From the NCBI GenBank assembly GCA_965218095.1, contig OZ244587.1, positions 4,736,001-4,800,000 on the forward strand: a stretch of 64,000 nt of DNA, in the 5' to 3' direction. This document shows positions 2,899 through 53,142 of the stretch, in pieces. The number at the start of each line of letters is the position of its first letter. The stretch's first letter is position 1. A program made the translations under genes and the position numbers. A model generated the notes under the pieces. It was not told the DNA's origin. It saw only the letters and a list, made by a program, of their open reading frames with translations, and did no database searches. Origin of the DNA: Candidatus Poribacteria bacterium (GTDB taxonomy: Bacteria > Poribacteria > WGA-4E > PCPOR2b).

Positions 2899-2936
2899 AA
2901 TATTCTCCTTAAGTGGTTATGAATATCTTCCACGAT

Positions 2937-3024
2937 CCCCCTCACCTTAACCCTCTTCCACCAAGGGATGAGGGAACTATTTCTCCCCTTGCCCTTGACG
3001 GGAGAGAGGCGGGGGGTGAGGGTG
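2937..3024. repeat. Inverted pair of BoxC-like palindromic repeats
   Basis: CCCCCTCACCTTAACCCTCTTCC...GGG followed by an inverted copy ending GGGGGGTGAGGGTG; related copies at 13135-13250. Confidence 0.6.
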
Positions 3025-3076
3025 AAAACGTAAAAGGAAATAATTCAAACTTACTTAAAAACTGTGATCAGATTTC

Positions 3077-3239
3077 TATATGTAACCGTTAAAAATCTCA
3101 TACTGTGAAAATAGAATTCACGAAATATGGCACTCAAGAATCTGCTCATGTAGAAGTTTGTGCGAGTTTCTGAAGGATGTGAATTTAACAATTCGTTATC
3201 TTCGATTTCACATTGTCGCATTTTTTAACAGTTACTATA
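3077..3239. mobile_element. MITE-like non-coding element with imperfect terminal inverted repeats
   Basis: TATATGTAACCGTTAAAAA at 3077 versus TTTTTAACAGTTACTATA ending at 3239; inner pairs TGTGAAA/TTTCACA and AATTCAC/GTGAATT. Confidence 0.5.
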
Positions 3240-3455
3240 TGAAAAACCACGATTGGATTTCCACCTTCAACCTTTAACAGATGATACCATAAATTGAAGA
3301 AAAATCCTACCCAAAATTGGTGAAGACAGCGTTTTCACATTCTGCCTGCCTGGATGGGAACTCTAGCAGAAATATATCCGTTACTGACACGGGGGGTTTG
3401 ACTTAGAAAGGAAAGCTTTTGCGGGCAGAGACAGAACTCAGGAATTAAGATGGGG

Positions 3456-3732
3456 CCTGGTTGACTGACAAAAGTGGTTTGGGAGCAGACAGCCCGTGAC
3501 TTTTTGGCATATGGCTTGTCAAACAACAGAGAGGGCGAGCCCCGATAGGATCGGGATTCAGATTGCTCTGAATCCTCGATACTTCATCGGGAGCAATATG
3601 TGAGGAAGCGAGTCTGTGAGGTTCGCTCTTGCCTGCCTCCACGCTCCCTCGCCTCCATTTTCCACAACGCATGAGAAATCGGATAAAACGAGCTGTGACA
3701 TCGATCCGACCGAGTTTTGTCAGTCAATCAGG
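3456..3732. mobile_element. MITE-like element with 18-bp terminal inverted repeats
   Basis: CCTGGTTGACTGACAAAA (3456-3473) and TTTTGTCAGTCAATCAGG (3715-3732) are 17/18 complementary; internal hairpins; no credible ORF. Confidence 0.6.
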
Positions 3733-3775
3733 GGGGGGGGGCGATAATCCGCAAGATTGCATCCCATTTTCAGTT

Positions 3776-32728: not shown

Positions 32729-32773
32729 TGAAGGGAAGGTTTGTCTTTCGGGTGTAAGGAGGAACTGAAGGAA

Positions 32774-33745
32774 GTGCATCGCACATATCAGATGGCACGG
32801 ATTCTCAAAGTCGCAAGCCTTATCCGCCGTGACCCCAGAAAATGGAATCGCCCACGCCTCGCCCAAGAACTTCGCGTCAATAAAGCAACGATTTCGCGCT
32901 ACATCGGCGAACTGCGCGAGATGGGAATGCAGGTTATTTCACATGGGCGTGGCGGTTACGAAATCATTACCGATATTTTTCTGCCTGAACTTAACTTTGA
33001 TTGGGATGAAGCCCTTGGTCTGGTTACGGCAGCGAGTTTTTACAGGGCGAATGAAGGGCAACAGGCTCAAGGTACGCTTGACAGTGCCATCGCAAAAATT
33101 CGGACGAATCTACCCAAAGGTACTCAGCGCGTCCTGCAACAGATTGTTCCACAGATTGATGTTCCCGATTTTCAGGTGAGCCAGACCGATGAAAGTCAGC
33201 CGCAGCGCGAGACGCTATATGACGCGATTCGGGAACGCCTCAAAGTCAATATCGAATACAACTCCTTCAGCGGTGGAAAACGTAGGCGACATCGGCTTTC
33301 GCCCTATGCCGTCATGTTCCGCAAACGTGCCTGGTACGTCATTGGGCACTCTGAAACGTTCAATCGGATTCTGACCTTCCGCATCAACCGCATCCATTCC
33401 TTCTCTATCGGCCATACCCCCTACACGATTCCCGAGGATTTCTCTGTGCAGAGATACATGGAGAAAAGTTGGGATGTCATGCTCGGTCCGGAGACACACG
33501 TCGTCATCGAGTTCGCGCCACGCATCGCCCCGCTGATTCGAGAGGTGCGTTGGCATTCGACACAGCAGATACAGGAAAACGCTGATGGAGGACTTCGCTT
33601 TGAAGCCACAGTCGCAGGTTGGCTAGAAGTCGGCTGGTGGGTTTTGGGTTGGGGAGATGAGGCAGAAGTGATTGAACCGAGGGAATTGCGGGAGTGGGTC
33701 GCGCAGACGGCACGGAAGATGGTAAGGATGTATCGAAAAAATTAA
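32774..33745 (+). CDS. HTH-WYL-WCX transcriptional regulator associated with the type I-D locus
   Basis: HTH (LAQELRVNKATISRYI), LSPYAV...WYVIGH...TFRINRI, WVLGWGDEAEVIEP; start uncertain (GTG 32774 or ATG 32792). Confidence 0.92.
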   Translation: MHRTYQMARILKVASLIRRDPRKWNRPRLAQELRVNKATISRYIGELREMGMQVISHGRGGYEIITDIFLPELNFDWDEALGLVTAASFYRANEGQQAQGTLDSAIAKIRTNLPKGTQRVLQQIVPQIDVPDFQVSQTDESQPQRETLYDAIRERLKVNIEYNSFSGGKRRRHRLSPYAVMFRKRAWYVIGHSETFNRILTFRINRIHSFSIGHTPYTIPEDFSVQRYMEKSWDVMLGPETHVVIEFAPRIAPLIREVRWHSTQQIQENADGGLRFEATVAGWLEVGWWVLGWGDEAEVIEPRELREWVAQTARKMVRMYRKN

Positions 33746-34064: not shown

Positions 34065-35003
34065 ATGATGGCGACACAAAAAAGGAAGGCCTCACTTCAG
34101 AACGCACTTCGTGGGCGTTTTGCGAAAAAAGGGTCTGCAGAACTAAAGTCGGATTTAAAAGGGTTGTTTGATACGTTGAGTGGTTATGAGCTTGTGGATG
34201 CGGTTATCGGGCGTGTGCAGCGTTATGCGGTGGAGGCATCCGGTAAGACGGTAGATCACGATTTCAGTCGGATGGAATTGTATGAAGCAGACGAGATTAA
34301 AAGGGGAATCCGTGATGAGTTGGTTTGGCACGTTTCGTCCTTTGTCTCAGATGTGCATCGGGAGTTTATCGTCCAGTGTCATGCGTGGGGGGGGGCTACT
34401 TCCGAAGCGGCTTTGGAGTTGATGAAGACAGACAAGGCGATAAATCGATTGGCGCAAGAGGACGCGATGGGTTGGAACGAACTTCGAGAAACGTTGATTC
34501 ATCGGTTGGCGTATCTGAAGCCGGGTTCGTCTCGGTGGCCTGAAAAGAAGTACGGCTTGGCCTGGCGTGAAGCACGGGAGGAGTATAAACAGGCGTTGAG
34601 TGATATTCCGTTCACGTCTCGGGTGGAGCAGGTTGCGCTTTTAGCCAAACATGCTGAGCGAATTAACTATGAGCTGGATAATAGAATACATTCCGTGAAA
34701 GCTTTGCAAATGTTGACGAATTCGTTGGTAAAGACGGTAGAGAGTTTGCGGAAACTGTCGGCGGTTGATGAACAACAGATACCTGCGAATTTGTCTGCGC
34801 CTCAGCTTGTTGGGGTTCTGGAGCGGCTGACGCTTGCGCTGAGGGCGCCTGAGCAGAAGGCGATTGGCGGTGGGGCTGAGGAACTTGTTGGGGTTCTGGA
34901 GCGGTTAACGCTTGCGTTGAGGGCGCCTGAGCAGAAGGTGATTGGCAGTGGGGCGGAGGCTGTGCCTGCGGAGGCGGGTGGTGACGTGGGCGAGCCTGAG
35001 TGA
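34065..35003 (+). CDS. Hypothetical protein with a DUF2280-like (phage-related) central region and a 26-aa C-terminal duplication
   Basis: GGAGG RBS; REFIVQCHA...AWREAREEY...DIPF pattern; LVGVLERLTLALRAPEQK twice (78-bp period, 34806 and 34884). Confidence 0.6.
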   Translation: MMATQKRKASLQNALRGRFAKKGSAELKSDLKGLFDTLSGYELVDAVIGRVQRYAVEASGKTVDHDFSRMELYEADEIKRGIRDELVWHVSSFVSDVHREFIVQCHAWGGATSEAALELMKTDKAINRLAQEDAMGWNELRETLIHRLAYLKPGSSRWPEKKYGLAWREAREEYKQALSDIPFTSRVEQVALLAKHAERINYELDNRIHSVKALQMLTNSLVKTVESLRKLSAVDEQQIPANLSAPQLVGVLERLTLALRAPEQKAIGGGAEELVGVLERLTLALRAPEQKVIGSGAEAVPAEAGGDVGEPE

Positions 35004-35135
35004 AGTGACCTGAGTTGCCGCCTTAGATAAGACCAAGCGCAGAAACCGAGTTTTTAGATGAATAGACACGAGTTCGGCGGAAACGCCAACGATTTGCTCA
35101 GGTCTGGGTTCGTAGTAGCGCAATTCATTATACAA

Positions 35136-36359
35136 CTACGGCATGCTTGCAACGATATTTTGAACTTCCGTTTCTAATTCCAGGGTGATTTGCTGCGTGG
35201 TTTGTCTTTTCTCTTTTTTATAGGCTTCATAGGCATCCAGCAGATTTTGGGGCGTACCAATACGAACGAAAGCATCCAGGGGGCCTTTGGCTTTCGAGCG
35301 ACCAAAGACCTCCGCTTCAAGCCGTGTGATGACTTCCAGAAAGCGTTCTTGAGATGGATGTTCGCCGATGTACCCCTCGTAAATCGCAATAGAGTTGACA
35401 ATGCGGCGCAGGTCTGTGAAAAATTGTCGAAATTTGTCAAGGCGCTGTGTGTGAATCCCCTTCTCATATTTGGTCATCTCATCTACATCCCGGTAAATTT
35501 CCTCATTAATCTGGTTCTGAATGGCCCGAACTCGCCTTAGTGGATGCGAGTCTGGTTGAGGAACGATTCCCATGAAGTTCTCCATCTGTGACAGAATGTG
35601 TTCTTTCAACAGTTGAATTCGCTCATTAAGTGAACTATCTTCGCTCAGACGAAGTTGATATTCTTTCGCCAGCGTCATCAGCAGGCTCGCTCCCACATTC
35701 TTCACGCGGTCATACAATTCTGTAGGCGGATCGGTATGCTTAGGCAGGACGCTTTGTTCCAGATTCGTAAGTGCCTGCTCAATTTGACGCCACATATCTT
35801 TCTTGTAGATGTACTTTAGCCCGACAGGTACAAGATAGACAGGTTTGACATTACCCGCCTTTTCCATATCATTGAGTGCCCAGAATCCGAACTGTGCAAT
35901 GCCACTTTCAAACGGCATAATCGTCTCGTTCTGATGCGAGATTTCTCCTTCGCCGAAGATAACTAACTTCTGCTCCCCTTTGGTCAGCGTTTCTCGTGTC
36001 AGCCGAAACGAATCCCGGTCTACGGCGCCACGCACGATTGAATAGGCGCCAAGCCTAGTCATGAAAAATCCTCTCCATTTCCCCCCAGCTAACTGGTCAA
36101 AGGTCTCTCGTGCTGTCATATAGCGAAACCGCTCCCCACAGCGTTTTGACACCGCAAACATCACATGTGGGTCAGCGTGGGTTGGATGATTCGGCACGAG
36201 AATCGTTGAGAATCCATCAGTTGATTTCAGCCTATCGAGGGATGTTGCATCAATATCTAAATGTGAAACCTTCTGGGAAAGCCGCATGAGTAACGGTAAC
36301 ATCAACTTGACGGTCCCGATCACGATTGCATTCTCTTTGGGCGGTTTGAAATCTAGCAT
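35136..36359 (-). CDS. Phospholipid/glycerol acyltransferase (PlsC domain)
   Basis: NHPTHAD (HX4D), IFGEG, VPVGLKY; GGAG RBS before ATG 36359. Confidence 0.88.
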   Translation of the reverse strand: MLDFKPPKENAIVIGTVKLMLPLLMRLSQKVSHLDIDATSLDRLKSTDGFSTILVPNHPTHADPHVMFAVSKRCGERFRYMTARETFDQLAGGKWRGFFMTRLGAYSIVRGAVDRDSFRLTRETLTKGEQKLVIFGEGEISHQNETIMPFESGIAQFGFWALNDMEKAGNVKPVYLVPVGLKYIYKKDMWRQIEQALTNLEQSVLPKHTDPPTELYDRVKNVGASLLMTLAKEYQLRLSEDSSLNERIQLLKEHILSQMENFMGIVPQPDSHPLRRVRAIQNQINEEIYRDVDEMTKYEKGIHTQRLDKFRQFFTDLRRIVNSIAIYEGYIGEHPSQERFLEVITRLEAEVFGRSKAKGPLDAFVRIGTPQNLLDAYEAYKKEKRQTTQQITLELETEVQNIVASMP

Positions 36360-36519
36360 CCGATCACTCCAAAACTCGATTTCTCTGGGATAGGTAGCAA
36401 GTTTGATTATTTTAAACGATCTCGGAAACAATGTCAACCCGGAAATGCGGCGCCATGTTACCTCTGATTCCGTCCAATTCTTATCTTGTCAAGTATATCC
36501 GGGCTTCTAATGCGGAAAC

Positions 36520-36650
36520 GATTGGCGGGGAGGCTGAGGTTGTGCCTGTGAAGGTGGGTGGTGACGTGGGTGAGCCGGAGTGAAGTGATTGAACCGAAGG
36601 AATTGCGGGAGTGGGTCGCGGGGATAGCACGGAAGATGGTAACGGTGTAT
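36520..36650 (+). repeat. Chimeric duplicate of the 3' end of the 312-aa ORF fused to the 3' end of the WYL gene
   Basis: 36520-36588 resembles 34940-35008 and 36582-36650 resembles 33665-33733; joined at the shared GAAGTGA. Confidence 0.85.
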
Positions 36651-36676
36651 TTCAAAGCAAAACGATGATTTTGCCC

Positions 36677-36705
36677 TTGACCAAAAGGGCCGGTTCTGCT
36701 ACCAT
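36677..36705 (+). promoter_or_regulatory. Promoter of the mini-CRISPR RNA
   Basis: TTGACC-17bp-TACCAT with extended TG. Confidence 0.6.
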
Positions 36706-36797
36706 AATGGCGAGAATCTCGATTACGAGATTGAAATATGGTTGTGTTATATTTTGCCCTAATTGTATGATAAGAATCTCGATTGCGAGATTGAAAT
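36701..36797 (+). CRISPR. Mini-CRISPR / crRNA-like RNA: two degenerate repeats around a 23-nt spacer
   Basis: AGAATCTCGATTACGAGATTGAAAT and ATGATAAGAATCTCGATTGCGAGATTGAAAT match the 3' part of the array repeat with the hairpin intact; spacer ATGGTTGTGTTATATTTTGCCCT (36738-36760). Confidence 0.9.
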
Positions 36798-36805
36798 ATT
36801 TTTAT

Positions 36806-36861
36806 TTGACTTGTTGGGTTGTCTATGTTATAATTAGTTTATTGTGATGGTAGTGTTATAT
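36806..36861 (+). promoter_or_regulatory. Strong sigma70-type promoter followed by the mini-CRISPR target site
   Basis: TTGACT-17bp-TGnTATAAT (36806-36834); GTG PAM at 36844-36846 then ATGGTAGTGTTATAT (36847-36861), 14/15 identical to the spacer 5' end. Confidence 0.8.
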
Positions 36862-36893
36862 ACTCAATTAGAATAAAAATACAAGGAAATCAA

Positions 36894-37133
36894 ATGCAAC
36901 CCTTAAATCCATCTCTGGAAATTCAAGCACATTTAAAAAAAATAGATCGGGAGCAGTCTTATATTGAAGATCGGCATTATGAGATTGGTCAGACTGTAAA
37001 TCTTTTAGAACGCGAGAATGCAGATTTACTTGATCGTTATAGCGATCTGGATTCGGCAAAGGAAATTTGCTACAGTGCACTCGCAGGCGACCCCGTCGCG
37101 ATTTGGGCGGAACTTCAGCGGTTCGGACTTTAA
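36894..37133 (+). CDS. Small acidic hypothetical protein (79 aa), candidate Cascade-repressed toxin
   Basis: AAGGA RBS, ATG start and its own consensus promoter; no family recognised. Confidence 0.7.
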   Translation: MQPLNPSLEIQAHLKKIDREQSYIEDRHYEIGQTVNLLERENADLLDRYSDLDSAKEICYSALAGDPVAIWAELQRFGL

Positions 37134-37221
37134 GATTGTGGGAAATGCGTCTGGAGAAACCTAGTTTTTCGGCAAAACTGGGAATGGGGCAATCAATTAC
37201 ATTCTTAAACAGACGAACCGC

Positions 37222-37272
37222 AAAAAAAGCAGGGCCTACATCCACCGCCAAGGATGGGTTCGGTCCTGCGCA
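37222..37272 (-). ncRNA. Candidate ~50-nt small RNA with a UUGGCG loop
   Basis: Minus-strand promoter TTGACC-17bp-TGCTATAAT (37306-37278); hairpin GCAGGACC...CAUCC-UUGGCGGU-GGAUG...GGCCCUGC followed by U7. Confidence 0.6.
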
Positions 37273-37438
37273 TCGTTATTATAGCATTCAACTCAAGATA
37301 GGTCAAATCCTTTTCAAAAGATTTTAACAAAAATGAGATTCGGCGAGATTTTTTTTGATTAGTTGCAGGTTTGTGCGACTGATCGTATGTTATCATGTTC
37401 TCGGTTACTGGAAAATCCGATGAAATGGAGGGTTTAGA

Positions 37439-39532
37439 GTGATTAAACTTAGAGTCAAACCTGTATACTCTCGAAAGGCGGAAGTTGTTCCCATCAAGAA
37501 CGGCCCCGAAGGGCTTGAGTTTCGACAACACCAAGTCGAAACCTATAAAGCGATTCAGGATCCAGATGTAGATGTGATCTTCAATAGGGCAATGACCGGT
37601 GATGGAAAAAGTTTAGCCGCGTATCTTCCCGCGCTGACGGAAGGCAGGTCAATCCTAGCTATGTACCCAACTAACGAATTAATCAAAGATCAAGAACGAC
37701 AAGTGCAGGGATACTGCCAGTGGTTTGAGCAAAATATTGCCTGCGACAAGATGTTTGGGGAACGGCTGTACAAACTTCGTGCAGAATTGACAGATCTACG
37801 CGGGCAAAAAGCCGCGATTGAACTTTTGGCTCTAAAGAATCCAATTCTACTCACAAATCCGGATATCTTTAATCTAATCGCCAATTTTCACTATCTGAAC
37901 CCCGAATATGAAAACCCAGATCAGTTGGTACAGCACATTATCGACTATTATGATCTGTTTATCTTCGACGAGTTTCATATCTATGATGTCTCGCAGGTCA
38001 TCTCTGTTCTGACAACCATGTTGTATTTCATCGAGCAGGGACGTGGCAAATTCAATCAGAAAAAGTTCGTCTTTCTCTCTGCGACACCGAGCCCACTCCT
38101 GCTGGATTGTTTGGAGAAGGTGAATCTCCGATACAAAATCATCGAAGGGTGTTATCAATTCGATGAACTGGATTCAGCGAATTGGGACGGAATCTGCGCG
38201 CCATTCGACTTACATTTCCACGCAACGGGTCGCCGTACCGAAGAATGGGTCGAAAACCATTATCAGCAAATCGCCGAGTGGTTTGCCGATAATCCGAATT
38301 CACGTGGGGCAATTATTGTCAACTCGGTTGCAGCGGCGAAACGAATTTCCTTGTTTCTCAAAGAACGAAACGTGGCGGGGGATTTTCCTCTGAACGTTGG
38401 CGAAAATACTGGACTCAGCAGTCGGGAAGAACGACGTTTTGCTCTCCACGAAAGTGACCTGCTCATCGGGACCTCAACGGTAGATGTCGGTGTTGACTTC
38501 AAAATCAACTTTCTTGTCTTTGAGGCGATAGACGCAGGTTCGTGGATTCAAAGGCTTGGACGGCTTGGTCGGCATTCAGAATACGCAACACCTGACGGGG
38601 CGGTTATGAAGTTTGACCGTTTCGTTGCTCACTCGCTTCTGCCCAAATACGTCTACGAACGGATTGAGCAAGTCGTCACGTCGGATTCAGAAATTGACAA
38701 AGGGACTCTGATTGACCTCATGCGAAGTGAGGATGAGAATAAACGGATTTTCTCTCCCATCAACGATTTTCGCAACTATAAAAAGTCTTGGGGTTGGTTG
38801 CACGCTTCGCATATCATCAACACTTTGGGGCATCCACGATTGCGCGAAAACTATGCACCCCAGCGAGAAAAACTCACGAAGGTCTATACCGACATTTTCG
38901 AGGCGGATATCGAAACGCGAGCAACAAAATGGTATTTCGCTGTTAAAAATAAACGGCCGGAAATCATTGATTCTGCTGTGATTCAATTTCGTGGTGAGAC
39001 ACCTTTCACATGTGGAATCATTGATGAAACAGATGGCGAGGTGAAAGACTACAATCTCCTGTGGACGTTAAGCAACGCCGAAGTCGAATTCATGGACAAG
39101 ACGGATTTCATGCAAGAAATCCAATCGCGGGGAATTCCACCCCGTCAGTTTCGGTCCGTTGGCATCTATCTCCGATTACATGGATATCGCTCAGAGCGAG
39201 AGCGTTTTCACCTGACTCAGAGCCGCAAGATTGGGAAGCAGTTTACTGACGAAGATTACCGTCAGTTGCATACGCTCAAGGGGTTTGAGATTGATGGTAA
39301 TTTTCCAGAAATTAACAAAATCAATCGTTGGTTGCGCATAAAACCGCATCTTTGCCTTGTTTGTAAAGAGCCGTTGGGTGATTTACGGCGGCTGTTACGT
39401 CTGCCGATGATGTTTTCCATTTTCTCGCTACTTGATCGGGATGGTAACGAATTCAGCGTCGTATTTTCAAAGGACGCGCTCTTGTTACATTCTCAGCCCT
39501 ACATTTGGGCGAAGGAGGATTCTAATGGCTGA
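37439..39532 (+). CDS. cas3: Type I-D CRISPR helicase Cas3' (no HD domain)
   Basis: AMTGDGKS, YPTNELIKDQ, DEFH, SAT, TSTVDVGVDF, QRLGRLGRH; GGAGG RBS with GTG start. Confidence 0.95.
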   Translation: MIKLRVKPVYSRKAEVVPIKNGPEGLEFRQHQVETYKAIQDPDVDVIFNRAMTGDGKSLAAYLPALTEGRSILAMYPTNELIKDQERQVQGYCQWFEQNIACDKMFGERLYKLRAELTDLRGQKAAIELLALKNPILLTNPDIFNLIANFHYLNPEYENPDQLVQHIIDYYDLFIFDEFHIYDVSQVISVLTTMLYFIEQGRGKFNQKKFVFLSATPSPLLLDCLEKVNLRYKIIEGCYQFDELDSANWDGICAPFDLHFHATGRRTEEWVENHYQQIAEWFADNPNSRGAIIVNSVAAAKRISLFLKERNVAGDFPLNVGENTGLSSREERRFALHESDLLIGTSTVDVGVDFKINFLVFEAIDAGSWIQRLGRLGRHSEYATPDGAVMKFDRFVAHSLLPKYVYERIEQVVTSDSEIDKGTLIDLMRSEDENKRIFSPINDFRNYKKSWGWLHASHIINTLGHPRLRENYAPQREKLTKVYTDIFEADIETRATKWYFAVKNKRPEIIDSAVIQFRGETPFTCGIIDETDGEVKDYNLLWTLSNAEVEFMDKTDFMQEIQSRGIPPRQFRSVGIYLRLHGYRSERERFHLTQSRKIGKQFTDEDYRQLHTLKGFEIDGNFPEINKINRWLRIKPHLCLVCKEPLGDLRRLLRLPMMFSIFSLLDRDGNEFSVVFSKDALLLHSQPYIWAKEDSNG

Positions 39533-42494
39533 ACAACCTCAACCTGATTTCCTGGGGATTTCAGAGAGTTCCCAAGAAACACAAGAAATCCACGCACAAA
39601 TCGCATTGCTGAAAAACGCCGTTGACCCAGACGATTTTGTCTTGACAGACTACGTCGAGACAGTTGTACCGCAGATGCTGGACGAATACACGCTCCGTTC
39701 AGCGAAAGGAAGCACGGTTTGGGCGTCCAATCACGACCAAAGTATGCTCGCGCATATTCTCAACGGCATCTTTCCAACGCTCACGATTGTGCGAATTGCC
39801 GGGCAACCGTTGAGTGAACTAGACGAGCGGCTCTACCTGATTGCCTATTCGTTTCATGACATTGACAAACTCATAGACATCCGTGATTTGAGTGTCTCTG
39901 ATGCGGAGAAGTCTGAGCAATTTTACAGCTACCTTGATGAATGGGTTGCGAAACTCCATTTTGATAAATTCTGTCCAGATTACGAAGATTACCGCGGAGA
40001 CATTGCATATCTCATTCTCAACACGCAGAAGAAATACGGTGCAAACCTCAATTTGCAGAGTTACGATTCGCGCCTACCGGGGCGACGACGCCAGTTTTTG
40101 CGGGAGATGTGTACCGCATCAGACCTTATCGCCTATTTTCTGAAGAATCCGAGTGGATTTCGAGAACAGGCGAATGCCCGTGAATCTCTCGTCAAGCTCA
40201 GCGGTGGGAAACTCGAATTCGCCTATCACAAACTCGCTGAGAATCGCGGTATGATTACGAATGTCATCAACAACGCCTTGCTCAGAATCCTGCGTGACCG
40301 ATTGGGATGGAAACCGTTTCTCTTCTTCCCAACAGGTGTCACATATTTGCGAAAGTGGTTAAGCGAAGAGAGCAACTTGCCGACACAGGATGAAATTGCC
40401 GAGGATGTTGAAAAACAGCTCATTGCATACTGCGCCGGGCGATTAGAGGCGAACCTCAACGGATTTACGCGAGATGGGAAGGGATTTAAGTTTCCCGATT
40501 ACTATTACGATTTCTTCCAACTTCCTGAACTACTCCAACTCATTCGCAAAGGATGCTTCAGGATACTGCACGAGAATAAGTCACCCTCTGCTGGGAAGCG
40601 ACTACAGAAGCTGCTTCAACTTCAGAAAAAAGGTGATATTCCCCCTGATGTCAATCTCCATTTTGAAGAGGATATGCGCGTTGACCAACTTGCGGAATAT
40701 CTCTACGAAATCGAGAAACACGTTGGCGCAATAACGAGCCGTGAGGCGGTATCTTCTGAGATTATCACGATTTTGGATACGCAAGAATATCAGACTGACT
40801 TTGAAGCGATTCCACGCGATAATCGGGCAGGCGGTGTGCCGCTACATTGGTATTTCCTCGCAGGCAAATACTTGATGAAAAATCTTGGGCTTGATGCGAA
40901 TCAGATGGAAGATTTGTTTGCAGACATTGCCAATCAGGTTGTGACAACATTCGAGGGAGAAATTGAACATCGCGAGGTGGAGAAGGAAGGGTTCAGTGTA
41001 CTCCGCGAATATGTTCGAGAAATTGTCGATATCAATGGACACAGTGAGATCGAACGCGACTTTGAAGCGGAATTGGACCGATACACAAACACGAAGAAAA
41101 AAGGGCGTGGCTCGAATGCGGGTTGTTCTCTCTGTTCGTCAACGTTTGAAACAAGCAAGCAACGAGACACGTCGGTCATCTTCGCCAACCAAGTCTACAG
41201 TAACAAGAACTTGCTCAACTCCTCATTGCTCGTCCGCGGCATCTGTGAATTGTGCGAGGTCGAAATGATGCTCCGACAAATCATGATACGCTCGAAATTG
41301 CGGCTCGTGGGCGGTGGGTATGATGACGTCAAAATCAAGTGGCTGTATCTCTATCCGAGCTACTTTTTCACGACAGAGACAGCGAAGTTTGTCGGCAACG
41401 CATATCGGCAGATGAAGAACTTGAATTTCTTTGACGTGCGGAAAGCGTTACACAAAGGAATGGCAGTGAGGGATTTCATCAATTTAGATGAAATGGTCAT
41501 TGACACCGAAATTCCGAACCCTGACGATGATTATCTGCTCAAGATGGAGTTCGACACCAACGACCTTGCAACCTTCTACTTCTGCGGAATCCCGACGCTC
41601 GGCAAAAGCCCCACCGATACAGAATCGTGGGCATTACCGACTTTTCTCGGTCTGCTTATGCCATTAGTGTTCAATGCGAAGGTCGTTGTGACCGAGTCGC
41701 AGATTCCACTCTATCACAGCAGCGAGGAGTGGAAAGAGACAGTTGTTCTCAATGCCCCCCATCCGTTTGTGAAGCACATTCTAGGCACAGTCGAAATCCG
41801 CATTGACCAGATCGAAGCGGCTTTGAAGAAGATTGTTGCTGCCTACGATATGAATATTGATGTATTCCAAAAGGATGGTAAACCGCAGTGGCAACACCTC
41901 AACGAAATTGGGCGGAACATTGACACAGACCCACTTTACGTTTTTCATTATCTCGAAGCGTTTCGCCGGAAGCAGGGTTGGGACAGTTTCCCCAAACCCC
42001 GTGATGGCGAATCATCAATCCCGGAACGATACATCCAAACTTATCACCATATTGGAGGTGACAAGATGAGTCTCATTGAAGAAGTCGCCAAACGGTGCTT
42101 CAAATTTTACGGACCCGATAACTTCAAGCCGAACAGTGTCTTGAAGGTGATTACGCTGGTTGAAGACGTGATTGTCAACAGCGAGTCGAAAATTAACGCA
42201 ACTGATCTAAAATACCAAGCCATTGGCGAGGTAAGTAACCTGATGCAACGGATTCGGTCAAGTCGTGCCCAAGGCTACGCTCGGCTCCACCCTAGAGATG
42301 AAGAACCATCAGCTATTCACGAATTTGTTGAATATTTTTATAACGTGGTGTTTGCTGAATATTACGATGGCGAGCGCGGTATGCTTCGTCAACGTCGCAA
42401 CCGCTTTAATGCGGGTGTCAACGCATGGTATCAGGTAAACTGGCGTCAATTCCAAACGAAAAAGGCAAAGGAGGAAAACAATGCCGACAATTGA
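39525..42494 (+). CDS. cas10d: Type I-D large subunit Cas10d/Csc3 with N-terminal HD nuclease
   Basis: DQSMLAHILNG...FHDIDK, CSLC/CELC zinc motif, LYLYPSYFFT; GGAGG RBS before ATG 39525. Confidence 0.93.
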   Translation: MAEQPQPDFLGISESSQETQEIHAQIALLKNAVDPDDFVLTDYVETVVPQMLDEYTLRSAKGSTVWASNHDQSMLAHILNGIFPTLTIVRIAGQPLSELDERLYLIAYSFHDIDKLIDIRDLSVSDAEKSEQFYSYLDEWVAKLHFDKFCPDYEDYRGDIAYLILNTQKKYGANLNLQSYDSRLPGRRRQFLREMCTASDLIAYFLKNPSGFREQANARESLVKLSGGKLEFAYHKLAENRGMITNVINNALLRILRDRLGWKPFLFFPTGVTYLRKWLSEESNLPTQDEIAEDVEKQLIAYCAGRLEANLNGFTRDGKGFKFPDYYYDFFQLPELLQLIRKGCFRILHENKSPSAGKRLQKLLQLQKKGDIPPDVNLHFEEDMRVDQLAEYLYEIEKHVGAITSREAVSSEIITILDTQEYQTDFEAIPRDNRAGGVPLHWYFLAGKYLMKNLGLDANQMEDLFADIANQVVTTFEGEIEHREVEKEGFSVLREYVREIVDINGHSEIERDFEAELDRYTNTKKKGRGSNAGCSLCSSTFETSKQRDTSVIFANQVYSNKNLLNSSLLVRGICELCEVEMMLRQIMIRSKLRLVGGGYDDVKIKWLYLYPSYFFTTETAKFVGNAYRQMKNLNFFDVRKALHKGMAVRDFINLDEMVIDTEIPNPDDDYLLKMEFDTNDLATFYFCGIPTLGKSPTDTESWALPTFLGLLMPLVFNAKVVVTESQIPLYHSSEEWKETVVLNAPHPFVKHILGTVEIRIDQIEAALKKIVAAYDMNIDVFQKDGKPQWQHLNEIGRNIDTDPLYVFHYLEAFRRKQGWDSFPKPRDGESSIPERYIQTYHHIGGDKMSLIEEVAKRCFKFYGPDNFKPNSVLKVITLVEDVIVNSESKINATDLKYQAIGEVSNLMQRIRSSRAQGYARLHPRDEEPSAIHEFVEYFYNVVFAEYYDGERGMLRQRRNRFNAGVNAWYQVNWRQFQTKKAKEENNADN
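42066..42494 (+). CDS. cas11d: Cas11d small subunit, translated in-frame from inside cas10d (142 aa)
   Basis: GGAGGTG at 42054-42060, 5 nt before in-frame ATG 42066. Confidence 0.75.
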   Translation: MSLIEEVAKRCFKFYGPDNFKPNSVLKVITLVEDVIVNSESKINATDLKYQAIGEVSNLMQRIRSSRAQGYARLHPRDEEPSAIHEFVEYFYNVVFAEYYDGERGMLRQRRNRFNAGVNAWYQVNWRQFQTKKAKEENNADN

Positions 42495-43488
42495 AATTCC
42501 GAAAGAGCTCGTTCCCGAAAATTATTTTTTGAATCGAATTCCGAAAGCCCCAACGGGGCGTTATGCACATCTGATTGTGGTTCGTGAAACAGAGTCGTTT
42601 CCCGTTTTTCAAACAGATGGCACGCTCAACATTGCCAAGGTCAAGGCAGGTTTGCAAAATGGCGATTCGCTCATACGCCTTGCGATGTTCAAGCGGAAAC
42701 AGAGTTCGCCAGAGCGACTTACTGGACGCGAATTGCTGAGAAGCACAGGCATTACACAGAATGAAGATGCCGGCGAAGATAACTACTGTGACTACAACGA
42801 GCAGTTCTGTACGACCTGCCCCGACTGCGTTTACTACGGGTTCGCAATCGGTGATTCTGGCTCTGAAAAATCAAAGGTGTATGTTGATACCGCCTATTCG
42901 ATTACAGGCTACGATGAGTCACATCAGCAGTTTTCATTCAACGCGCTGTATGAAAAAGGGAACATGAGTCAGCATGGCGAAGTTCGCTCTAGCTTTGGCG
43001 AACAAGACCACATCGTACCACAAGTTTTCTTTCCCTCTATCATTACCATTAAGGATGTGATGGTCAACAGTTTTGCCTACGTTTTGAACAACGTGCTACG
43101 AACGAAACGTTACGGCGCGCAGACGACACGAACCGGACGACTTGCCAATCATATCGTCGGAGCGGTATTTGCTGATGGTGAGATCTTTTCAAATCTTAAA
43201 TTCACGCAAGCCATCCACGATGCGTTGGGCAACGACAAGGACGAAACGCCGTTGAATCCTGAGAAAGTTTTTCAAACGGCTCGATTAACCACATCCGAGC
43301 TCTTGAAGGATGACGGTGTGAACTATCATCTACTTGAGGAAGAAAACCTGCAAGAGTTACTTGGCATCGTCAAGTCCGCGACAACGGATGAAGAAAAACT
43401 TCATCAACTTTTGCAGGAGGCAAACGCCGAGACGCAGGAATACTCCGAACGAGTGATTCAAAAGGCATCAAACAAAAAGAAAAAGTAG
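42481..43488 (+). CDS. cas7: Type I-D Cas7/Csc2
   Basis: FKRKQSSPERLTGRELLR, CPDCVYYGFAIG, RYGAQTTRTG. Confidence 0.95.
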   Translation: MPTIEIPKELVPENYFLNRIPKAPTGRYAHLIVVRETESFPVFQTDGTLNIAKVKAGLQNGDSLIRLAMFKRKQSSPERLTGRELLRSTGITQNEDAGEDNYCDYNEQFCTTCPDCVYYGFAIGDSGSEKSKVYVDTAYSITGYDESHQQFSFNALYEKGNMSQHGEVRSSFGEQDHIVPQVFFPSIITIKDVMVNSFAYVLNNVLRTKRYGAQTTRTGRLANHIVGAVFADGEIFSNLKFTQAIHDALGNDKDETPLNPEKVFQTARLTTSELLKDDGVNYHLLEEENLQELLGIVKSATTDEEKLHQLLQEANAETQEYSERVIQKASNKKKK

Positions 43489-43497
43489 GAGGGACCG

Positions 43498-44193
43498 ATG
43501 CAAGTCACGAGATGCCGCCTTATCCTGCACGACTCTCTCTACTACGCGACTCGTGAGATGGGGCGACTGTACGAGACGGAGAAGGTCATCCACAATTGGG
43601 CGTTGACGTATGCGCTCGGTTTGATTCAAAAGCCGTATAGATCATTTAACAGCGTTCCAACTTATCAGGAGGACCTCACACCAATCAATGCGGCAGGTGT
43701 CTATGTGACACCTGCCAAACCGATTCATTATGATTATATAATCAGTACCTTCAAATTCGCGGACAATCGACATCGCCCGTTTTCAACTGTCAGCAATACG
43801 CGAAAAAGGGAGTTGAAGATTACTGTGACGAACAAACCATCTTTCGGCAAGGCGAAGGAACTTGCGCCGGAGAGCGAGTTTGAATTTTTCATCATGGGTA
43901 AATTGCCCGAACGGGTCCCGAAGTGGATCCGGTTGGGATTGTGGATGAGCAAAGCAAAAATCGAAATCAAAGATCGTCAGGACTTGACCGTTCAACGGGG
44001 TCAATTTACATGTCCTCACTTGTTGAATCCGCTAGATCTTTCAATTCGGCCGCAACTCTATGATCTGATCTCGATGCCGCCGGTGAGTCTTCTTCAAAAT
44101 GTGACTTTGACAGGCGAGTACGTTGCGTTTCAGAGAGAGCAAGAAACAGTTTGTTTACCAGCCACAATGAGATATTTTGCAAACTCAACTTAG
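43498..44193 (+). CDS. cas5: Type I-D Cas5/Csc1
   Basis: LHDSLYYATREMGRLYET..IHNWALTYALG, KELAPES, WIRLGLWMSKA. Confidence 0.95.
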   Translation: MQVTRCRLILHDSLYYATREMGRLYETEKVIHNWALTYALGLIQKPYRSFNSVPTYQEDLTPINAAGVYVTPAKPIHYDYIISTFKFADNRHRPFSTVSNTRKRELKITVTNKPSFGKAKELAPESEFEFFIMGKLPERVPKWIRLGLWMSKAKIEIKDRQDLTVQRGQFTCPHLLNPLDLSIRPQLYDLISMPPVSLLQNVTLTGEYVAFQREQETVCLPATMRYFANST

Positions 44194-44204
44194 AAAAGTT
44201 CACC

Positions 44205-45050
44205 ATGCCCATCAGCACCGTTATCTACCTCATCCCCCCCGAAGATGTCACACTTCGTCCGACGATGGGGCATCACGCGCACGCTGCGTTCCTATCGCTG
44301 TTGCGAATTGGCAATCCGGAAAAAGCGGAAGAAATTCACGCCACATCCGCGCAGAAACCGTTTACTGTTTCGCCGCTGATTGGTAAAGGCGAACGACGTG
44401 GGGATTTCCTGCACATCCGCGCTGGAACGGAATGCTGGCTCCGCTTTACGTTCCTCGACGATGAACTCTTCGCCTACTTCGGCAACGCCTTCTTGACACA
44501 GCAACTGCCGTCCATCCGCATCGGACAGGCGATGTTTCAACTCAGCCGATTGAATTCATCTGGGACAGAGGGTAAAGATTGGAGCGGCGCAAGAACCTAC
44601 GAAGACCTAATTGAATCTGCGCGGACAGACACTCGGATTCAGATGCGATTCCATTCGCCGACCGCCTTTCGGGAACTGACTCCGCACGGGCGAAAAACAC
44701 GCAATCAAGCAAATATTGACCTGCAACGTTGCTATCAGAGTTGGGTCAACAAATGGAATGCCTTCGGACCGATGCAGATTGATAAGCAACGCCTTCTCGA
44801 TTTCGTGGTCGGTCACGCCGGGCTGACCACAGTTGAGGCCAAGAGCCGGATGCTCGATTTCGGCAGACATAAGGCGGTCGGATTTGTTGGAAATTGTGCA
44901 TACCAATTTTTCGTGAAGCGTCAATCCGATGATGAGGGTAACATTGAGATGTTACGTTTGGTGAACCTGCTCGCCGATTTCGCCTTTTACTGTGGCACCG
45001 GCTACAAAACGACGATGGGGATGGGACAGACGCGGCGACGACAATCCTGA
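44205..45050 (+). CDS. cas6: CRISPR endoribonuclease Cas6
   Basis: KPFTVSPL, FHSPTAF and Gly-rich loop GTGYKTTMGMG; start placed at ATG 44205. Confidence 0.95.
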   Translation: MPISTVIYLIPPEDVTLRPTMGHHAHAAFLSLLRIGNPEKAEEIHATSAQKPFTVSPLIGKGERRGDFLHIRAGTECWLRFTFLDDELFAYFGNAFLTQQLPSIRIGQAMFQLSRLNSSGTEGKDWSGARTYEDLIESARTDTRIQMRFHSPTAFRELTPHGRKTRNQANIDLQRCYQSWVNKWNAFGPMQIDKQRLLDFVVGHAGLTTVEAKSRMLDFGRHKAVGFVGNCAYQFFVKRQSDDEGNIEMLRLVNLLADFAFYCGTGYKTTMGMGQTRRRQS

Positions 45051-45410
45051 TCACGAGATTGACATCAGATCGACATCAAGTGCCTCGGCAATCGCCTTCA
45101 ACGTTTTGACGGAACCGGACTTTCGTCCTGTCTCAATCCCCGCTAAATATGCACGTTGAATGCCGGTTTTATCCGCAAGTTGCTTCTGTGTGAGTCCCCG
45201 GTACTCGCGATACACCTTGATCGGATTCTCCTCATTGAGAATCAGCCGATTAATCACCTCGCCGGGGAAGGTTTCCTCATCAATGGCTTTCGCCCTACGA
45301 AAATCACGAATGTCTCTAAGCATCTCCGCATCTGCAAGGAGTTGGTCGTAATGCTCTATCGGTACAAGGGCAAATTTCTGACCTTCTATTTCTACTGTTT
45401 CAAGGCTCAT
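45051..45410 (-). CDS. XRE-family HTH antitoxin (HigA-like)
   Basis: NPIKVYREYRGLTQKQLADKTGI.RAYLAGIETG; start overlaps the toxin stop codon. Confidence 0.88.
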   Translation of the reverse strand: MSLETVEIEGQKFALVPIEHYDQLLADAEMLRDIRDFRRAKAIDEETFPGEVINRLILNEENPIKVYREYRGLTQKQLADKTGIQRAYLAGIETGRKSGSVKTLKAIAEALDVDLMSIS

Positions 45411-45664
45411 TTATACACACCGCCTCTCGGTCCAATTTTTACGATTTCAAGTACAAAGGTGTCATCATGGAGTTCATACAGCACTCGCCAGTCACCCACT
45501 CTGAGCCGGTATCCCGGCTCACCTGTTAGGCGTGTTATATTATTGTTCGGCGCGTAAGGATTCTCAGCAAGTTGGTTAATCTTCCCAACAACGGTTTTCG
45601 CTACATTACTGGGCATCCGCTGGAGCATCTTCATCGCGCTTGCTCGATATCGAATCTGATACAT
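45407..45664 (-). CDS. RelE/ParE-family toxin (85 aa)
   Basis: YRLRVGDWRVLY, IGPRGGVYK; AAGGGG RBS before ATG 45664. Confidence 0.9.
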   Translation of the reverse strand: MYQIRYRASAMKMLQRMPSNVAKTVVGKINQLAENPYAPNNNITRLTGEPGYRLRVGDWRVLYELHDDTFVLEIVKIGPRGGVYK

Positions 45665-45749
45665 GATGCCCCTTATTGTAGCTAAAAGCAACCTGAAAAT
45701 CAAGCATTTCCGTTACACACCCCGTTCCACAAATCTGGAGTATTAAACC

Positions 45750-48268: not shown

Positions 48269-51200
48269 CGATCAATGATAAGAATCTCGATTACGAGATT
48301 GAAACGCAAATATCGTGAAAATGGCGGGGTTGTATGGGTGGACGATCAATGATAAGAATCTCGATTACGAGATTGAAACATGTCAACGAAACGGTACAAC
48401 AACTCGCCGATGATGCGATCAATGATAAGAATCTCGATTACGAGATTGAAACGTAAAAGGTGGGAGATGCCCCCAGCTGGGTTGCTGGGCGATCAATGAT
48501 AAGAATCTCGATTACGAGATTGAAACTACATTAATAATGAGCCGCTCCGCGACTTTGGTGGTGACGATCAATGATAAGAATCTCGATTACGAGATTGAAA
48601 CAAATATCATCGGGATGATCTACCAATTTATCCGCAATCGATCAATGATAAGAATCTCGATTACGAGATTGAAACCAACGCTCGGGTTGCGACATCGACA
48701 CTCCCAAACCCTCGATCAATGATAAGAATCTCGATTACGAGATTGAAACGCATCAGTAATGATATACTCCGACGAAGCGAACCTGTCCGATCAATGATAA
48801 GAATCTCGATTACGAGATTGAAACTACATTATGATAGCAATGGCAACCACAACGGCTATACGATCAATGATAAGAATCTCGATTACGAGATTGAAACTCA
48901 CCGGTGCTAACGACATCCGACGGAATACCCGGCTCGATCAATGATAAGAATCTCGATTACGAGATTGAAACCAGGTGAGGGAATCGCTTTCAGATCGCGA
49001 GATACGCACGATCAATGATAAGAATCTCGATTACGAGATTGAAACATAATCCTCAGCATCATACGCTTCAAACGGTTTAATCGATCAATGATAAGAATCT
49101 CGATTACGAGATTGAAACGGAACGCCGGCGCTGCATACAGTGTTTAATCGCGCCTTCGATCAATGATAAGAATCTCGATTACGAGATTGAAACACTGCCA
49201 TGCTTTCCAGAGAGTCATAGTGCGGTCGCCGATCAATGATAAGAATCTCGATTACGAGATTGAAACTGAGACAACCTGTACTTTTCAATCCTCCAGTGAA
49301 CACCGATCAATGATAAGAATCTCGATTACGAGATTGAAACGACAAAGAGCGGATCAGAACTCTCCTCAGTATCCCCGATCAATGATAAGAATCTCGATTA
49401 CGAGATTGAAACGACAGCCTCCGAGAAGAAGCCCGACGACTCAACATCACCCCCGCGATCAATGATAAGAATCTCGATTACGAGATTGAAACCTGGGTGG
49501 AACGGCGCAATGGGATAGCGACGAATTTCGACGATCAATGATAAGAATCTCGATTACGAGATTGAAACACATGGCATGGAAACTCGGGCTGATGGGAATC
49601 TGGGATCGATCAATGATAAGAATCTCGATTACGAGATTGAAACAAGTCCAAAATCGTCCCGTCCAGCAACAACACCTCTAAAACGATCAATGATAAGAAT
49701 CTCGATTACGAGATTGAAACAGAGATTCGCTGGGAATTAGGCGCATCCTCATCGAGGCGATCAATGATAAGAATCTCGATTACGAGATTGAAACTACCAC
49801 GACCGCGAAGGGCGCCCCCGACAGTATCTTCCGATCAATGATAAGAATCTCGATTACGAGATTGAAACCAAGTACCACTTCGATGTTGCCACTCACCGTC
49901 GCGGTGTTCGATCAATGATAAGAATCTCGATTACGAGATTGAAACCAGCAAGTCAGGGTACGATTTGCGAGTCTGCCCGATGACGATCAATGATAAGAAT
50001 CTCGATTACGAGATTGAAACAAAACGGTAGGACCAACAACGAAATTTGGACAGGCAGCTCGATCAATGATAAGAATCTCGATTACGAGATTGAAACTGTA
50101 AACGATAATGACGATCTTGAAGTCGGCACACAATTCGATCAATGATAAGAATCTCGATTACGAGATTGAAACAGCTATAACCAAGACCGCATCCTGATTC
50201 CGATGGAGATTCGATCAATGATAAGAATCTCGATTACGAGATTGAAACAAGTCCAAAATCGTCCCGTCCAGCAACAACACCTCTAAAACGATCAATGATA
50301 AGAATCTCGATTACGAGATTGAAACGACTGAGTTCTATCGAGAATACCCGTCAACGCCGGAGGACGATCAATGATAAGAATCTCGATTACGAGATTGAAA
50401 CTCCCCGTCGTCGCCGCAGACAGCGCACCCGACGCCCCGATCAATGATAAGAATCTCGATTACGAGATTGAAACGCGAAACGTGCGATTTCTCTGCCGAA
50501 GCGGATGGAGATACGATCAATGATAAGAATCTCGATTACGAGATTGAAACCAGCGAATATCTTGGGACCCATCCTCTGCTGATCGTATCATCGATCAATG
50601 ATAAGAATCTCGATTACGAGATTGAAACGAAGGGCACACCATTGATGTACAATCGATAATCGAACTCGATCAATGATAAGAATCTCGATTACGAGATTGA
50701 AACCACTGGGGCATCCATCAGTACCGATTGAGATATACGAATCGATCAATGATAAGAATCTCGATTACGAGATTGAAACTTGTGATCCACCTGCGCCCAT
50801 CGCGCTATCTGCCTGTCGATCAATGATAAGAATCTCGATTACGAGATTGAAACACAGGCACGATTTCAGGAAAGACGGTCATCCCGTTTGACGATCAATG
50901 ATAAGAATCTCGATTACGAGATTGAAACGAGATTCAACAGATCCCGCGCTGCACCCCGCCGTCCCGACGATCAATGATAAGAATCTCGATTACGAGATTG
51001 AAACTACCATGCCAGAAATAGCGGTTCAAAGTTGCTTTCGCGATCAATGATAAGAATCTCGATTACGAGATTGAAACACAGACGCATCATCGGTATCGGG
51101 GTCAACCACCGCTTCCGATCAATGATAAGAATCTCGATTACGAGATTGAAACTTCTATAATCCAAATAGTTCAAAAATACTCAGTGTTCGATCAATGATA

Positions 51201-53142
51201 AGAATCTCGATTACGAGATTGAAACCGTTGAAAGGTGGGAATATGGCAAAGATTCAATTAGGCGATCAATGATAAGAATCTCGATTACGAGATTGAAACA
51301 ACATCATCAAACGGCAGGATAAATTCACCCGATGTTGCGATCAATGATAAGAATCTCGATTACGAGATTGAAACTCAAGGCATTTACTCCTTCGAGGGAT
51401 GGCGGGCTGAGGAGCGATCAATGATAAGAATCTCGATTACGAGATTGAAACCAGTGGCTGCTTCGTTGCGCGGATACCACCGCTTGCGATCAATGATAAG
51501 AATCTCGATTACGAGATTGAAACGCGGCGGTGAGTTACTTTCCCTTGTTCAATCCGGCTACCCGATCAATGATAAGAATCTCGATTACGAGATTGAAACC
51601 GGAACTGGATCAACTGACTGAGCAGGGTAAGCAGAACGATCAATGATAAGAATCTCGATTACGAGATTGAAACTAACGTCTCGCGTCTCATGTTCCGCGT
51701 CTGCCGGTGCGATCAATGATAAGAATCTCGATTACGAGATTGAAACTGGTGCGCAAGTGCTGGGTGCGCGTGCGGGTCGTGCCAAGCGATCAATGATAAG
51801 AATCTCGATTACGAGATTGAAACAGCCGTTGGTATCACGTCTTTGTGGGTTTCGTCAACGATCAATGATAAGAATCTCGATTACGAGATTGAAACGAAAC
51901 CAATAATCGTGTACCATTTTTGATACGATTCGCCACGATCAATGATAAGAATCTCGATTACGAGATTGAAACTCTGAAGATTTCAGCGTTATCAATCAAA
52001 TACGCTTTACGATCAATGATAAGAATCTCGATTACGAGATTGAAACAGAAATGACTTCCCATTCGGAACGTGGCAAGTTTATACGATCAACGATAAGACA
52101 CTCGATTGCGAGATTGAAACAAACCCAAACCAGAGGCATGGATAAAGTGTGGATAACGATCAACGATAAGAATCTCGATTACGAGATTGAAACATGAATG
52201 AACACCACCAGAAGATTTGTTGATGGCTGTACGATCAACGATAAGAATCTCGATTACGAGATTGAAGCTGCTGAGCTCTCACCATGTGGAAGTCGGCGTG
52301 AAGCGATCAACGATAAGACACTCGATTACGAGATTGAAACTTCCCACACCTCTCGTGGCAGTGTCTGAGGTTCAGGGAACGATCAACGATAAGACACTCG
52401 ATTGCGAGATTGAAACGGGGGTGGTATTGTATTTGTTGCGTGAGTCCGTGTTTTCGATCAACGATAAGAATCTCGATTACGAGATTGAAACCCGCAGCCG
52501 GCGGAGCGGAGAATACAGCGCATTCAACGATCAATGATAAGAATCTCGATTACGAGATTGAAACTTATCAGACAGTACCACTTCAAGCCCATTTAATCTG
52601 CGATCAACGATAAGAATCTCGATTACGAGATTGAAACAGCGGTGCAAACCGATTAAGGCGCCAGGCCTCGAACAACGATCAACGATAAGAATCTCAATTA
52701 CGAGATTGAAACATGGTAGAGGGTAAGAAAGCTCACCAGATGGAGATCGCCGCCGATCAACGATAAGACACTCGATTGCGAGATTGAAACAGTTTCGATT
52801 TGACTCCCATCAGTTTGACTCCTTTTTTTTGTGCATGCACAAGAAAATTCGCCGCACGATCAACGATAAGATTCTCGATTACGAGATTGAAACGTGGAAA
52901 ACAGATGAAATACAAAAAGCCATCGGAAACTCCCGATGCTTCTGTTGAAGTCGGCGTTGAAAAAGATGCTGTTGATGGATTCTCTTACGGTGTTCTGGAG
53001 CGAGTCACGGTATTGAGTCCATGCGGACCTCGGATCAGGGAATCGATACCTGTTGCCTCCCACGACGTAAGAAATGAAGCGCGAGTTGCGGCGGGGGAAA
53101 CAGAACAACCTACGATAAGACTCTCGATTACGAGATTGAAAC
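48269..53142 (+). CRISPR. CRISPR array, 37-bp repeat CGATCAATGATAAGAATCTCGATTACGAGATTGAAAC, about 63 repeats / 62 spacers
   Basis: Manual count; spacers mostly 35-43 nt; hairpin AATCTCG-ATTA-CGAGATT; 3' ATTGAAAC; variant repeats from 52084 onward. Confidence 0.98.

Follow-up and report, generated by a model that had tools for sequence, protein, structure and literature searches.

A 79-aa coiled-coil protein as a probable Cascade-repressed cargo of a type I-D CRISPR-Cas locus in Poribacteria

We analysed a stretch of 64,000 nucleotides (the window) from a Candidatus Poribacteria bacterium, in which a gene at 36894..37133 on the + strand encodes ORF79, a 79-aa acidic coiled-coil protein. Comparison of related genomes leads us to conclude that ORF79 is very probably a Cascade-repressed cargo of a Poribacteria type I-D CRISPR-Cas locus. 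This type of circuit has already been published, in the form of type I-D cargo mini-arrays, CreP and CRISIS. What is new is the cargo family, found in type I-D and in an uncultivated phylum.

[quoted passage not shown] The effector genes were identified with Pfam and NCBIfam at 37439..45050 on the + strand, in the order cas3′ (37439-39532, Cas3 helicase domains by Pfam), cas10d (39432/39531-42494), csc2 (42481-43488), csc1 (43498-44193) and, as the last gene of the set, cas6 (44151-45050). Cas10d/Csc3, Csc2 and Csc1 match the NCBIfam equivalogs TIGR03174 (1.8e-120), TIGR03157 (1.1e-77) and TIGR03159 (1.3e-57), respectively. A cas4-cas1 fusion and then cas2 follow downstream, and the main CRISPR array, with a 37-nt repeat that is the parent of both pseudo-repeats described below, occupies ~48270..53142 on the + strand. 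The cas locus also contains a type II toxin-antitoxin pair of the classical kind, at 45051-45703 on the - strand between cas6 and cas4-cas1, whose members are an ORF for a toxin of the ParE/RelE family (98 aa) and an HTH_3 protein (119 aa). The usual upstream flank is a gene for a WYL-domain transcriptional regulator (32741..33745, +; HTH_11, WYL and WCX by Pfam); among 12 related loci, tblastn gave a homologue in 10. In the window genome an insertion at 34065-36437, comprising orf312 and an acyltransferase gene, has parted the WYL gene from the mini-array, and a duplicated remnant of the WYL 3′ end lies at 36555..36656 on the + strand (repeat families D2 and D3; tblastn match to WYL query positions 300-333). 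Within the span 34065-36656 the 312-aa protein gene carries a 78-nt tandem duplication (34806-34959) and the acyltransferase lies on the - strand. The insertion is flanked by duplicate copies of the 3′ ends of the WYL gene and of the 312-aa gene (families D2 and D3).

Matches to the repeat core numbered 65 in the window, against 0 expected. Most of them (63 of the 65) lie at 48281-53142, within and just beyond the main array, and the other two, at 36713-36737 and 36773-36797, belong to a mini-array of degenerate repeats upstream of ORF79. The mini-array derives from the locus's own CRISPR repeat, of which it keeps the 3′ 25-31 nt of 37 nt, and the 7-bp repeat hairpin (the Cas6 hairpin) is retained in both pseudo-repeats. 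Pseudo-repeat 1 (36713..36737, +) consists of the 3′ 25 nt of the repeat and differs in the last base; pseudo-repeat 2 (36767..36797, +) consists of ~31 nt, and the T-rich tail after it has a terminator-like score. The pseudo-spacer between them (36738..36766, +) is, at ~29 nt, shorter than the array spacers, and its targeting part is the first 15 nt (36738-36752). All promoters described here were called by consensus match only. One promoter-like site, TTGACC-17-TACCAT with a TG (36677..36705, +), is placed to start transcription at pseudo-repeat 1, and the same layout was seen by eye in loci L004 and L006-L009.

The predicted promoter of ORF79, P1 (TTGACT-17-TATAAT with a TG; 36806..36834, +), matches the consensus at 11 of 12 positions. 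Nine nucleotides downstream of its −10 element, directly after a GTG (36844..36846, +) that fits the type I-D 5′-GTN-3′ PAM, lies the target of the pseudo-spacer (36847..36861, +). The two are identical at 14 of 15 positions, the sole mismatch being at position 6, and there is no match past position 15 (family D10). The pseudo-spacer pairs with the template strand and, in the window clade, pairing starts by eye a few bases past the expected transcription start. In type I-D the PAM is GTN and every sixth base is flipped out and tolerant of mismatch, as summarized in a review (PMC10212523). ORF79 is the first gene downstream of P1, in agreement with an earlier note on this DNA, which had described it as the first gene after a promoter targeted by a mini-CRISPR.

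In order to follow guide and target through related genomes, we searched 176 genomes of the phylum with an ORF79 profile. Fifteen matched and 14 were retained as copies; the match in G113 (E 0.008), with one stop and non-CRISPR flanks, was judged spurious. Every genome with ORF79 has one copy, always at the CRISPR locus and none elsewhere. All 13 genomes that keep the 5′ region of the gene carry an upstream mini-array whose pseudo-spacer matches a GTN-flanked site before ORF79, with GTT as the PAM in nine and GTG in four. Where lineages differ at spacer positions 3, 4, 8 and 11, the target carries the corresponding change. A mismatch at position 6 occurs in 12 of the 13 genomes and one at position 12 is frequent, and the identity ends after 14-16 nt. 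Since the related genomes are kin, the 13 co-varying loci overstate the number of independent events, and part of these readings were made by eye. A strict script that required identity at spacer positions 1-5 and 7-11 gave 12 matches across 29 loci, 11 of them with a GTN PAM downstream of the mini-array and one spurious. These 11 lie 107-185 nt downstream of the mini-array, except in L037, where a restriction-modification set has been inserted and the distance is 2529 nt. Given the comparative data, the guide-target match is not due to chance, and ORF79 is in all likelihood repressed by the I-D Cascade with the mini-array guide. Of the CRISPR-repressed toxin proposed in the earlier note, the regulatory half, in which the mini-CRISPR is directed at the promoter of the gene, is strongly supported by the co-variation and the conserved type I-D PAM, and the toxin half stands as an analogy. 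The note had also asked whether homologs sit beside mini-arrays, and those of the 13 genomes do. In the clade with guides starting ATAGT (L030, L031, L033, L034 and L037), a short GC hairpin and then a T-run lie between a strong upstream promoter and the PAM and target, and the target, by eye, overlaps a second −10-like element, TATAGT.

Judged from its orthologues and codon pattern, ORF79 is a genuine conserved protein-coding gene, single-copy in the window genome. A Shine-Dalgarno sequence, AAGGA, lies at 36883-36887, 6 nt ahead of the ATG, which confirms the good ribosome-binding site noticed earlier. A word-indexed protein search found seven 79-aa orthologues of 72-82% identity and one frameshifted form of 46 aa, and an exhaustive profile search among 1.84 billion found 16 cluster representatives at E ≤ 1e-3. 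Five of these representatives are proteins of 138-164 aa made of two tandem units. Another, P0020 (325 aa, with six repeated stretches), was judged to be coiled-coil noise and not a relative. Among five orthologues the substitutions at codon positions 1, 2 and 3 number 181, 138 and 251, an excess at the third position, and 37 columns are invariant in an alignment of eight orthologues. Pairwise dN/dS values of 0.26-0.70 (10 pairs) indicate purifying but relaxed selection. A C-terminal motif, ALAG-[DE]-P-x-x-IWAELQRFG-[FL], is conserved; this segment is the best conserved part of the protein and is what the remnants and the last unit of the tandem forms have retained. An antisense ORF of 127 aa (36868-37251) was rejected as a real gene on the codon-position pattern and because its frame is interrupted in five of seven orthologues.

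Nine of the 14 genomic copies are intact (G000, G054, G137, G125, G108, G048, G095, G025 and G024). They come from three families of the phylum, share one length class, and in no case lack a cognate mini-array. The other five are broken in five different ways, and the cas genes remain. An IS has inserted at codon 75 in G041; TTA replaces the TTG start and the Shine-Dalgarno sequence is weakened in G033; the N-terminal half is replaced in G055, with guide and target kept; the guide and the 5′ part of the gene are deleted together in G031; and G021 has a frameshift. A scan of metagenome contigs gave one locus, L054, a C-terminal remnant resembling that of G031. This breakage, the truncated or frameshifted metagenomic forms (P0009, P0010, P0013, P0021 and P0022) and the dN/dS of up to 0.70 are what would be expected of a decaying or non-functional ORF79, either a remnant that is open by chance or one that is translated without function. 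We consider this very improbable in view of the nine intact copies of one length class in three families, the invariant columns, the third-position excess and the preservation of the C-terminal motif in the tandem-fused forms.

ORF79 has a pI of 4.58, a net charge of -7.3 and a negative GRAVY, and six orthologues are likewise acidic and hydrophilic (pI 4.2-4.9, net charge -6.5 to -10). An AF2 model from the eight-sequence alignment (mean pLDDT 88.4) consists of a helix over residues 6-63 and a short helix over residues 70-75, and the acidic and probably helical character proposed in the earlier note thus stands. The natural tandem-fused form models as an antiparallel helical hairpin, with helices 8-70 and 74-133 separated by a three-residue joint, again with a short C-terminal helix (pLDDT 91.6, pTM 0.75). 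From this hairpin the model suggests that the single-unit ORF79 forms an antiparallel coiled-coil dimer. No family had been recognised from the sequence alone, and the database searches gave the same result. ORF79 matched 0 Pfam families at E ≤ 0.1 and no NCBIfam family, PADLOC and PHROGs gave only weak coiled-coil noise (E ≥ 0.0016), and a profile search of PDB sequences had no significant match, the best one (ribosomal uL18, E 0.026) being regarded as noise. Foldseek, the structural check named in the earlier note, returned generic coiled coils only for both models (E ≥ 0.03), and the top scores in the ESM Atlas, 0.76-0.77, were below the lead threshold. Among phage sequences, 0 of 66 candidate stretches in IMG/VR were confirmed as relatives and INPHARED gave no tblastn match. 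Complex prediction between ORF79 and the WYL regulator scored 0.00 and gave no answer, from which nothing is concluded.

The loci share a constant frame of WYL regulator, mini-array, ORF79, effector genes and cas6, in which the effector module varies. The window, L032 and L035 share the module cas3′-cas10d-csc2-csc1. In L026-L030 and L034 the order is cas10d-csc2-csc1-cas3′, with only 22-37% identity. A third effector set, found in L031, L033, L036 and L037, contains four proteins without a significant Pfam or NCBIfam match; it is possibly an undescribed or highly divergent set of type I effectors that was exchanged into a frame resembling that of I-D. The third module also occurs in L039, L040, L044 and L046, with proteins of ~780, 319, 260 and 263 aa and a Cas3 helicase (e.g. 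L033:4974-11678). ORF79 occurs with three effector modules that differ greatly from one another, which makes an effector subunit an unlikely partner, and ORF79 probably does not act by touching one.

The type of Cas6 found at these loci is present in 86 of the 176 genomes, as compared with 14 for ORF79. We retrieved 16 loci that lack ORF79 and read six of them in detail. In three of these (L038, L039 and L042) the mini-array, the promoter, the GTT PAM and a target with mismatches at positions 6 and 12 are kept, there is no gene ahead of the cas promoter, and the targeted promoter points at the cas genes. Since the empty loci retain mini-array and target, the circuit does not exist for ORF79 alone and outlives its cargo. 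In other loci (L040, L044-L046, L048 and L052) the slot is filled by DUF3800-like genes, three of them confirmed by Pfam, and DUF3800 is a second candidate for a Cascade-repressed cargo. The DUF3800 genes in the slot encode 203-238 aa (e.g. L052:6978-7589), and the pseudo-spacers of L046 and L052 agree at 14-15 of 16 positions with a site before the DUF3800 gene that is flanked by GTC. In L037 (G021), at ~1950-4100 of the reverse complement, cytosine-methyltransferase-like, 244-aa and Vsr-like genes, named by eye from sequence motifs, lie between the mini-array and the ORF79 promoter. As far as the gene content of these loci tells, the ORF79 slot behaves as an insertion hotspot.

Defence genes supervised by crlRNAs have been reported under the name CRISIS (10.1101/2024.12.27.630466). 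By analogy, ORF79 could be a single-gene anti-phage effector whose dose is supervised by CRISPR-Cas and which is harmful mainly in infected cells, rather than a classical addiction toxin. The DUF3800 genes in the slot and the restriction-modification set of L037 agree with such a role. ORF79 itself is a 79-aa coiled coil with neither sensor nor effector domain, it belongs to no PADLOC family and no finding here bears on phage, and we regard this explanation as improbable.

The interval between ORF79 and the cas genes contains two further conserved elements. The first is a convergent small-RNA-like unit at 37222..37306 on the - strand, composed of a promoter TTGACC-17-TATAAT (TGnTATAAT; 37306-37278), a hairpin (37269-37229) and a U-run (37228-37222). 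In alignment A3 it is present in 24 copies in 22 of 29 sources (the window and L026-L053), one per genome and never outside this CRISPR locus, whether or not ORF79 is present. It sits between ORF79 and cas in six ORF79 loci, is sometimes found upstream of the mini-array instead, and is absent from L007, L008, L011 and L012, all of which have ORF79. The hairpin is ~41 nt long and the 3′ half is highly conserved. Rfam gave no family in 36400-37500, the hairpin folds no better than shuffles (z -0.23), and in an alifold 2 of 11 pairs have double (compensatory) changes. We do not claim a structured RNA on these values, and describe the unit as a conserved promoter, hairpin and U-run that is a possible small RNA of ~50 nt (37271 to ~37222). 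Reads of four contig-type runs on the locus came from diverged relatives only, and their very high summed depth over the unit is a hint that it is more conserved than its flanks. The arrangement recalls convergent type I toxin-antitoxin pairs such as txpA/RatA, since the putative small RNA gene runs towards the 3′ end of ORF79 and the two share a hairpin. Unlike those pairs, the convergent unit is found in loci that lack ORF79 and is missing from at least four that have it, and ORF79 is not a hydrophobic peptide; an antisense-RNA (type I) toxin-antitoxin system was therefore rejected.

The second element is a conserved palindrome at 37356..37385, which overlaps the putative cas-operon promoter, scored as a stem and was seen by eye in every related locus read. 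It is probably an operator, that of the WYL regulator. The cas genes thus have their own conserved putative promoter and palindrome. A terminator scan of the + strand between ORF79 and cas3′ scored nothing besides this palindrome, and in L007, L008, L011 and L012 the ORF79 stop lies within ~130 nt of the cas promoter. Because the stop abuts the cas promoter in several loci, the alternative raised in the earlier note, that ORF79 takes part in regulation of the cas operon, is equally alive.

Autorepression of cas genes by CreR has been established for types I-B, I-E and V-A (10.1101/2023.03.10.532045). By extension, P1 may serve chiefly as an additional promoter of the cas operon that Cascade autorepresses, with ORF79 as a harmless leader or accessory that is co-expressed when Cascade is low; it could modulate cas expression or the WYL regulator, or could be a helper against anti-CRISPRs. 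The empty loci, in which a guide, PAM and target are kept at a promoter that points at cas, fit this explanation, as do the short interval to the cas promoter with only the operator palindrome scored in it, the retention of cas in the 5 of 14 genomes that have lost ORF79, and the acidic, non-enzymatic nature of the protein. On the other hand, the cas genes have a conserved promoter and operator of their own, and in six loci the convergent promoter-hairpin unit stands between them and ORF79. A harmless gene would also be expected sometimes away from its guide and none was found, and ORF79 is conserved across three unrelated effector modules. We regard an accessory role as a serious possibility that falls clearly short of an even chance.

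The published systems provide a comparison for both parts of the circuit. In type I-D, the spacers of mini-arrays have been reported to match in part the promoters of variable 'cargo' genes, comprising toxin-antitoxin genes, regulators and 'other genes', and empty loci that retain the mini-array have been described (Shmakov et al. 2023, PMC10120712). The window resembles those loci in its subtype, mini-array, partial promoter match, variable slot upstream of cas and empty relatives. The main text of that report contains 0 occurrences of Poribacteria and does not name the ORF79 family, and its supplementary locus lists may include the present loci. We found no description of the family in the literature on CRISPR-repressed genes and type I-D. 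CreTA (I-B and I-F) and CreR, as published, share with the ORF79 circuit a degenerate mini-CRISPR, seed-proximal pairing and Cascade as the repressor. CreT toxins, however, are small RNAs whereas the target here is a protein gene, and CreR is directed at the cas promoter itself whereas the cas genes here have a separate conserved promoter, with read-through from P1 possible. The closest counterpart is CreP, a Cascade-repressed protein toxin of the type I-F system (CrePA) of Acinetobacter baylyi ADP1, which is a 103-aa protein with a phage-derived KilAC domain that blocks division (10.1101/2024.01.05.574328). In that system, as here, a mini-CRISPR guide would bring Cascade through a partial match and a PAM to the promoter of a small protein gene beside cas, and each is, as CrePA is described in that report, a single gene without a protein antitoxin. 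In contrast to the I-F, KilAC protein, ORF79 belongs to type I-D and is a predicted coiled coil of 79 aa with no Pfam domain and no phage homologue. With no Pfam family and a coiled-coil model, ORF79 was rejected as a member of the CreP family (KilAC/ANT-type).

A mechanism can be proposed from these features. The mini-array would be transcribed from its own promoter and its transcript cut by Cas6 at the two repeat hairpins, which would yield a crRNA-like RNA with a short spacer. I-D Cascade carrying this RNA would pair over ~15 nt with the template strand just past P1, beside the GTN PAM, with guide positions 6 and 12 free of pairing. From the CreA/CreR systems we infer that such pairing is too short to license cleavage by Cas3′/Cas10d, so that Cascade would sit as a repressor. 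Loss or dilution of Cascade, or its inhibition by an anti-CRISPR, would let P1 fire, and ORF79 would be made, presumably as a soluble acidic antiparallel coiled-coil dimer that presents two copies of the conserved Trp/Phe-rich C-terminal helix. Our best guess is that ORF79 is CreP-like, a non-enzymatic binder that would sequester a conserved cell component, arrest growth and so guard the CRISPR locus.

We hold this whole explanation, growth arrest and the role of toxin or guard included, tentatively and at a little below an even chance. There are hints of a costly product in the invariable presence of the guide beside intact copies, the frequent breakage, and the near-consensus promoter with its good Shine-Dalgarno sequence. 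In one clade the start codons are TTG and a hairpin resembling a terminator stands between promoter and target, and this apparent layering of expression control also hints at a costly product. The empty loci with mini-array and target, and the lack of a clear terminator before cas, point the other way. Moreover, toxins do not usually take the form of an acidic and hydrophilic coiled coil, and ORF79 has no similarity to a toxin, defence or enzyme family. The guard and accessory readings are not separable by computation. A more specific form of the guard explanation, which we consider rather unlikely, is that ORF79 represents a new non-enzymatic class of CRISPR-repressed guards, whose conserved Trp/Phe C-terminal helices would, on inhibition of Cascade, sequester a host factor that is essential, and which is perhaps tuned by the convergent ~50-nt RNA. 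Such a guard would be portable between the three effector modules because it would depend only on Cas6, the repeat and the PAM.

If ORF79 arrests growth, then protein toxins that guard CRISPR loci would extend beyond the single KilAC example to type I-D and to a phylum known only from metagenomes, and would include a very small effector without a recognised domain. If real, a guard of the new class would have no precedent in type I-D or in this uncultivated phylum of sponge symbionts. Type I-D is a hybrid subtype that is used for genome editing. Whatever ORF79 does, the loci together amount to a clean natural experiment, in which the guide changes in step with its target, the mismatches at positions 6 and 12 stay fixed, and one frame of guide, cargo and Cas6 occurs with three different effector modules. 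It offers evidence at the level of sequence on the pairing that the I-D Cascade needs in order to bind without cutting.
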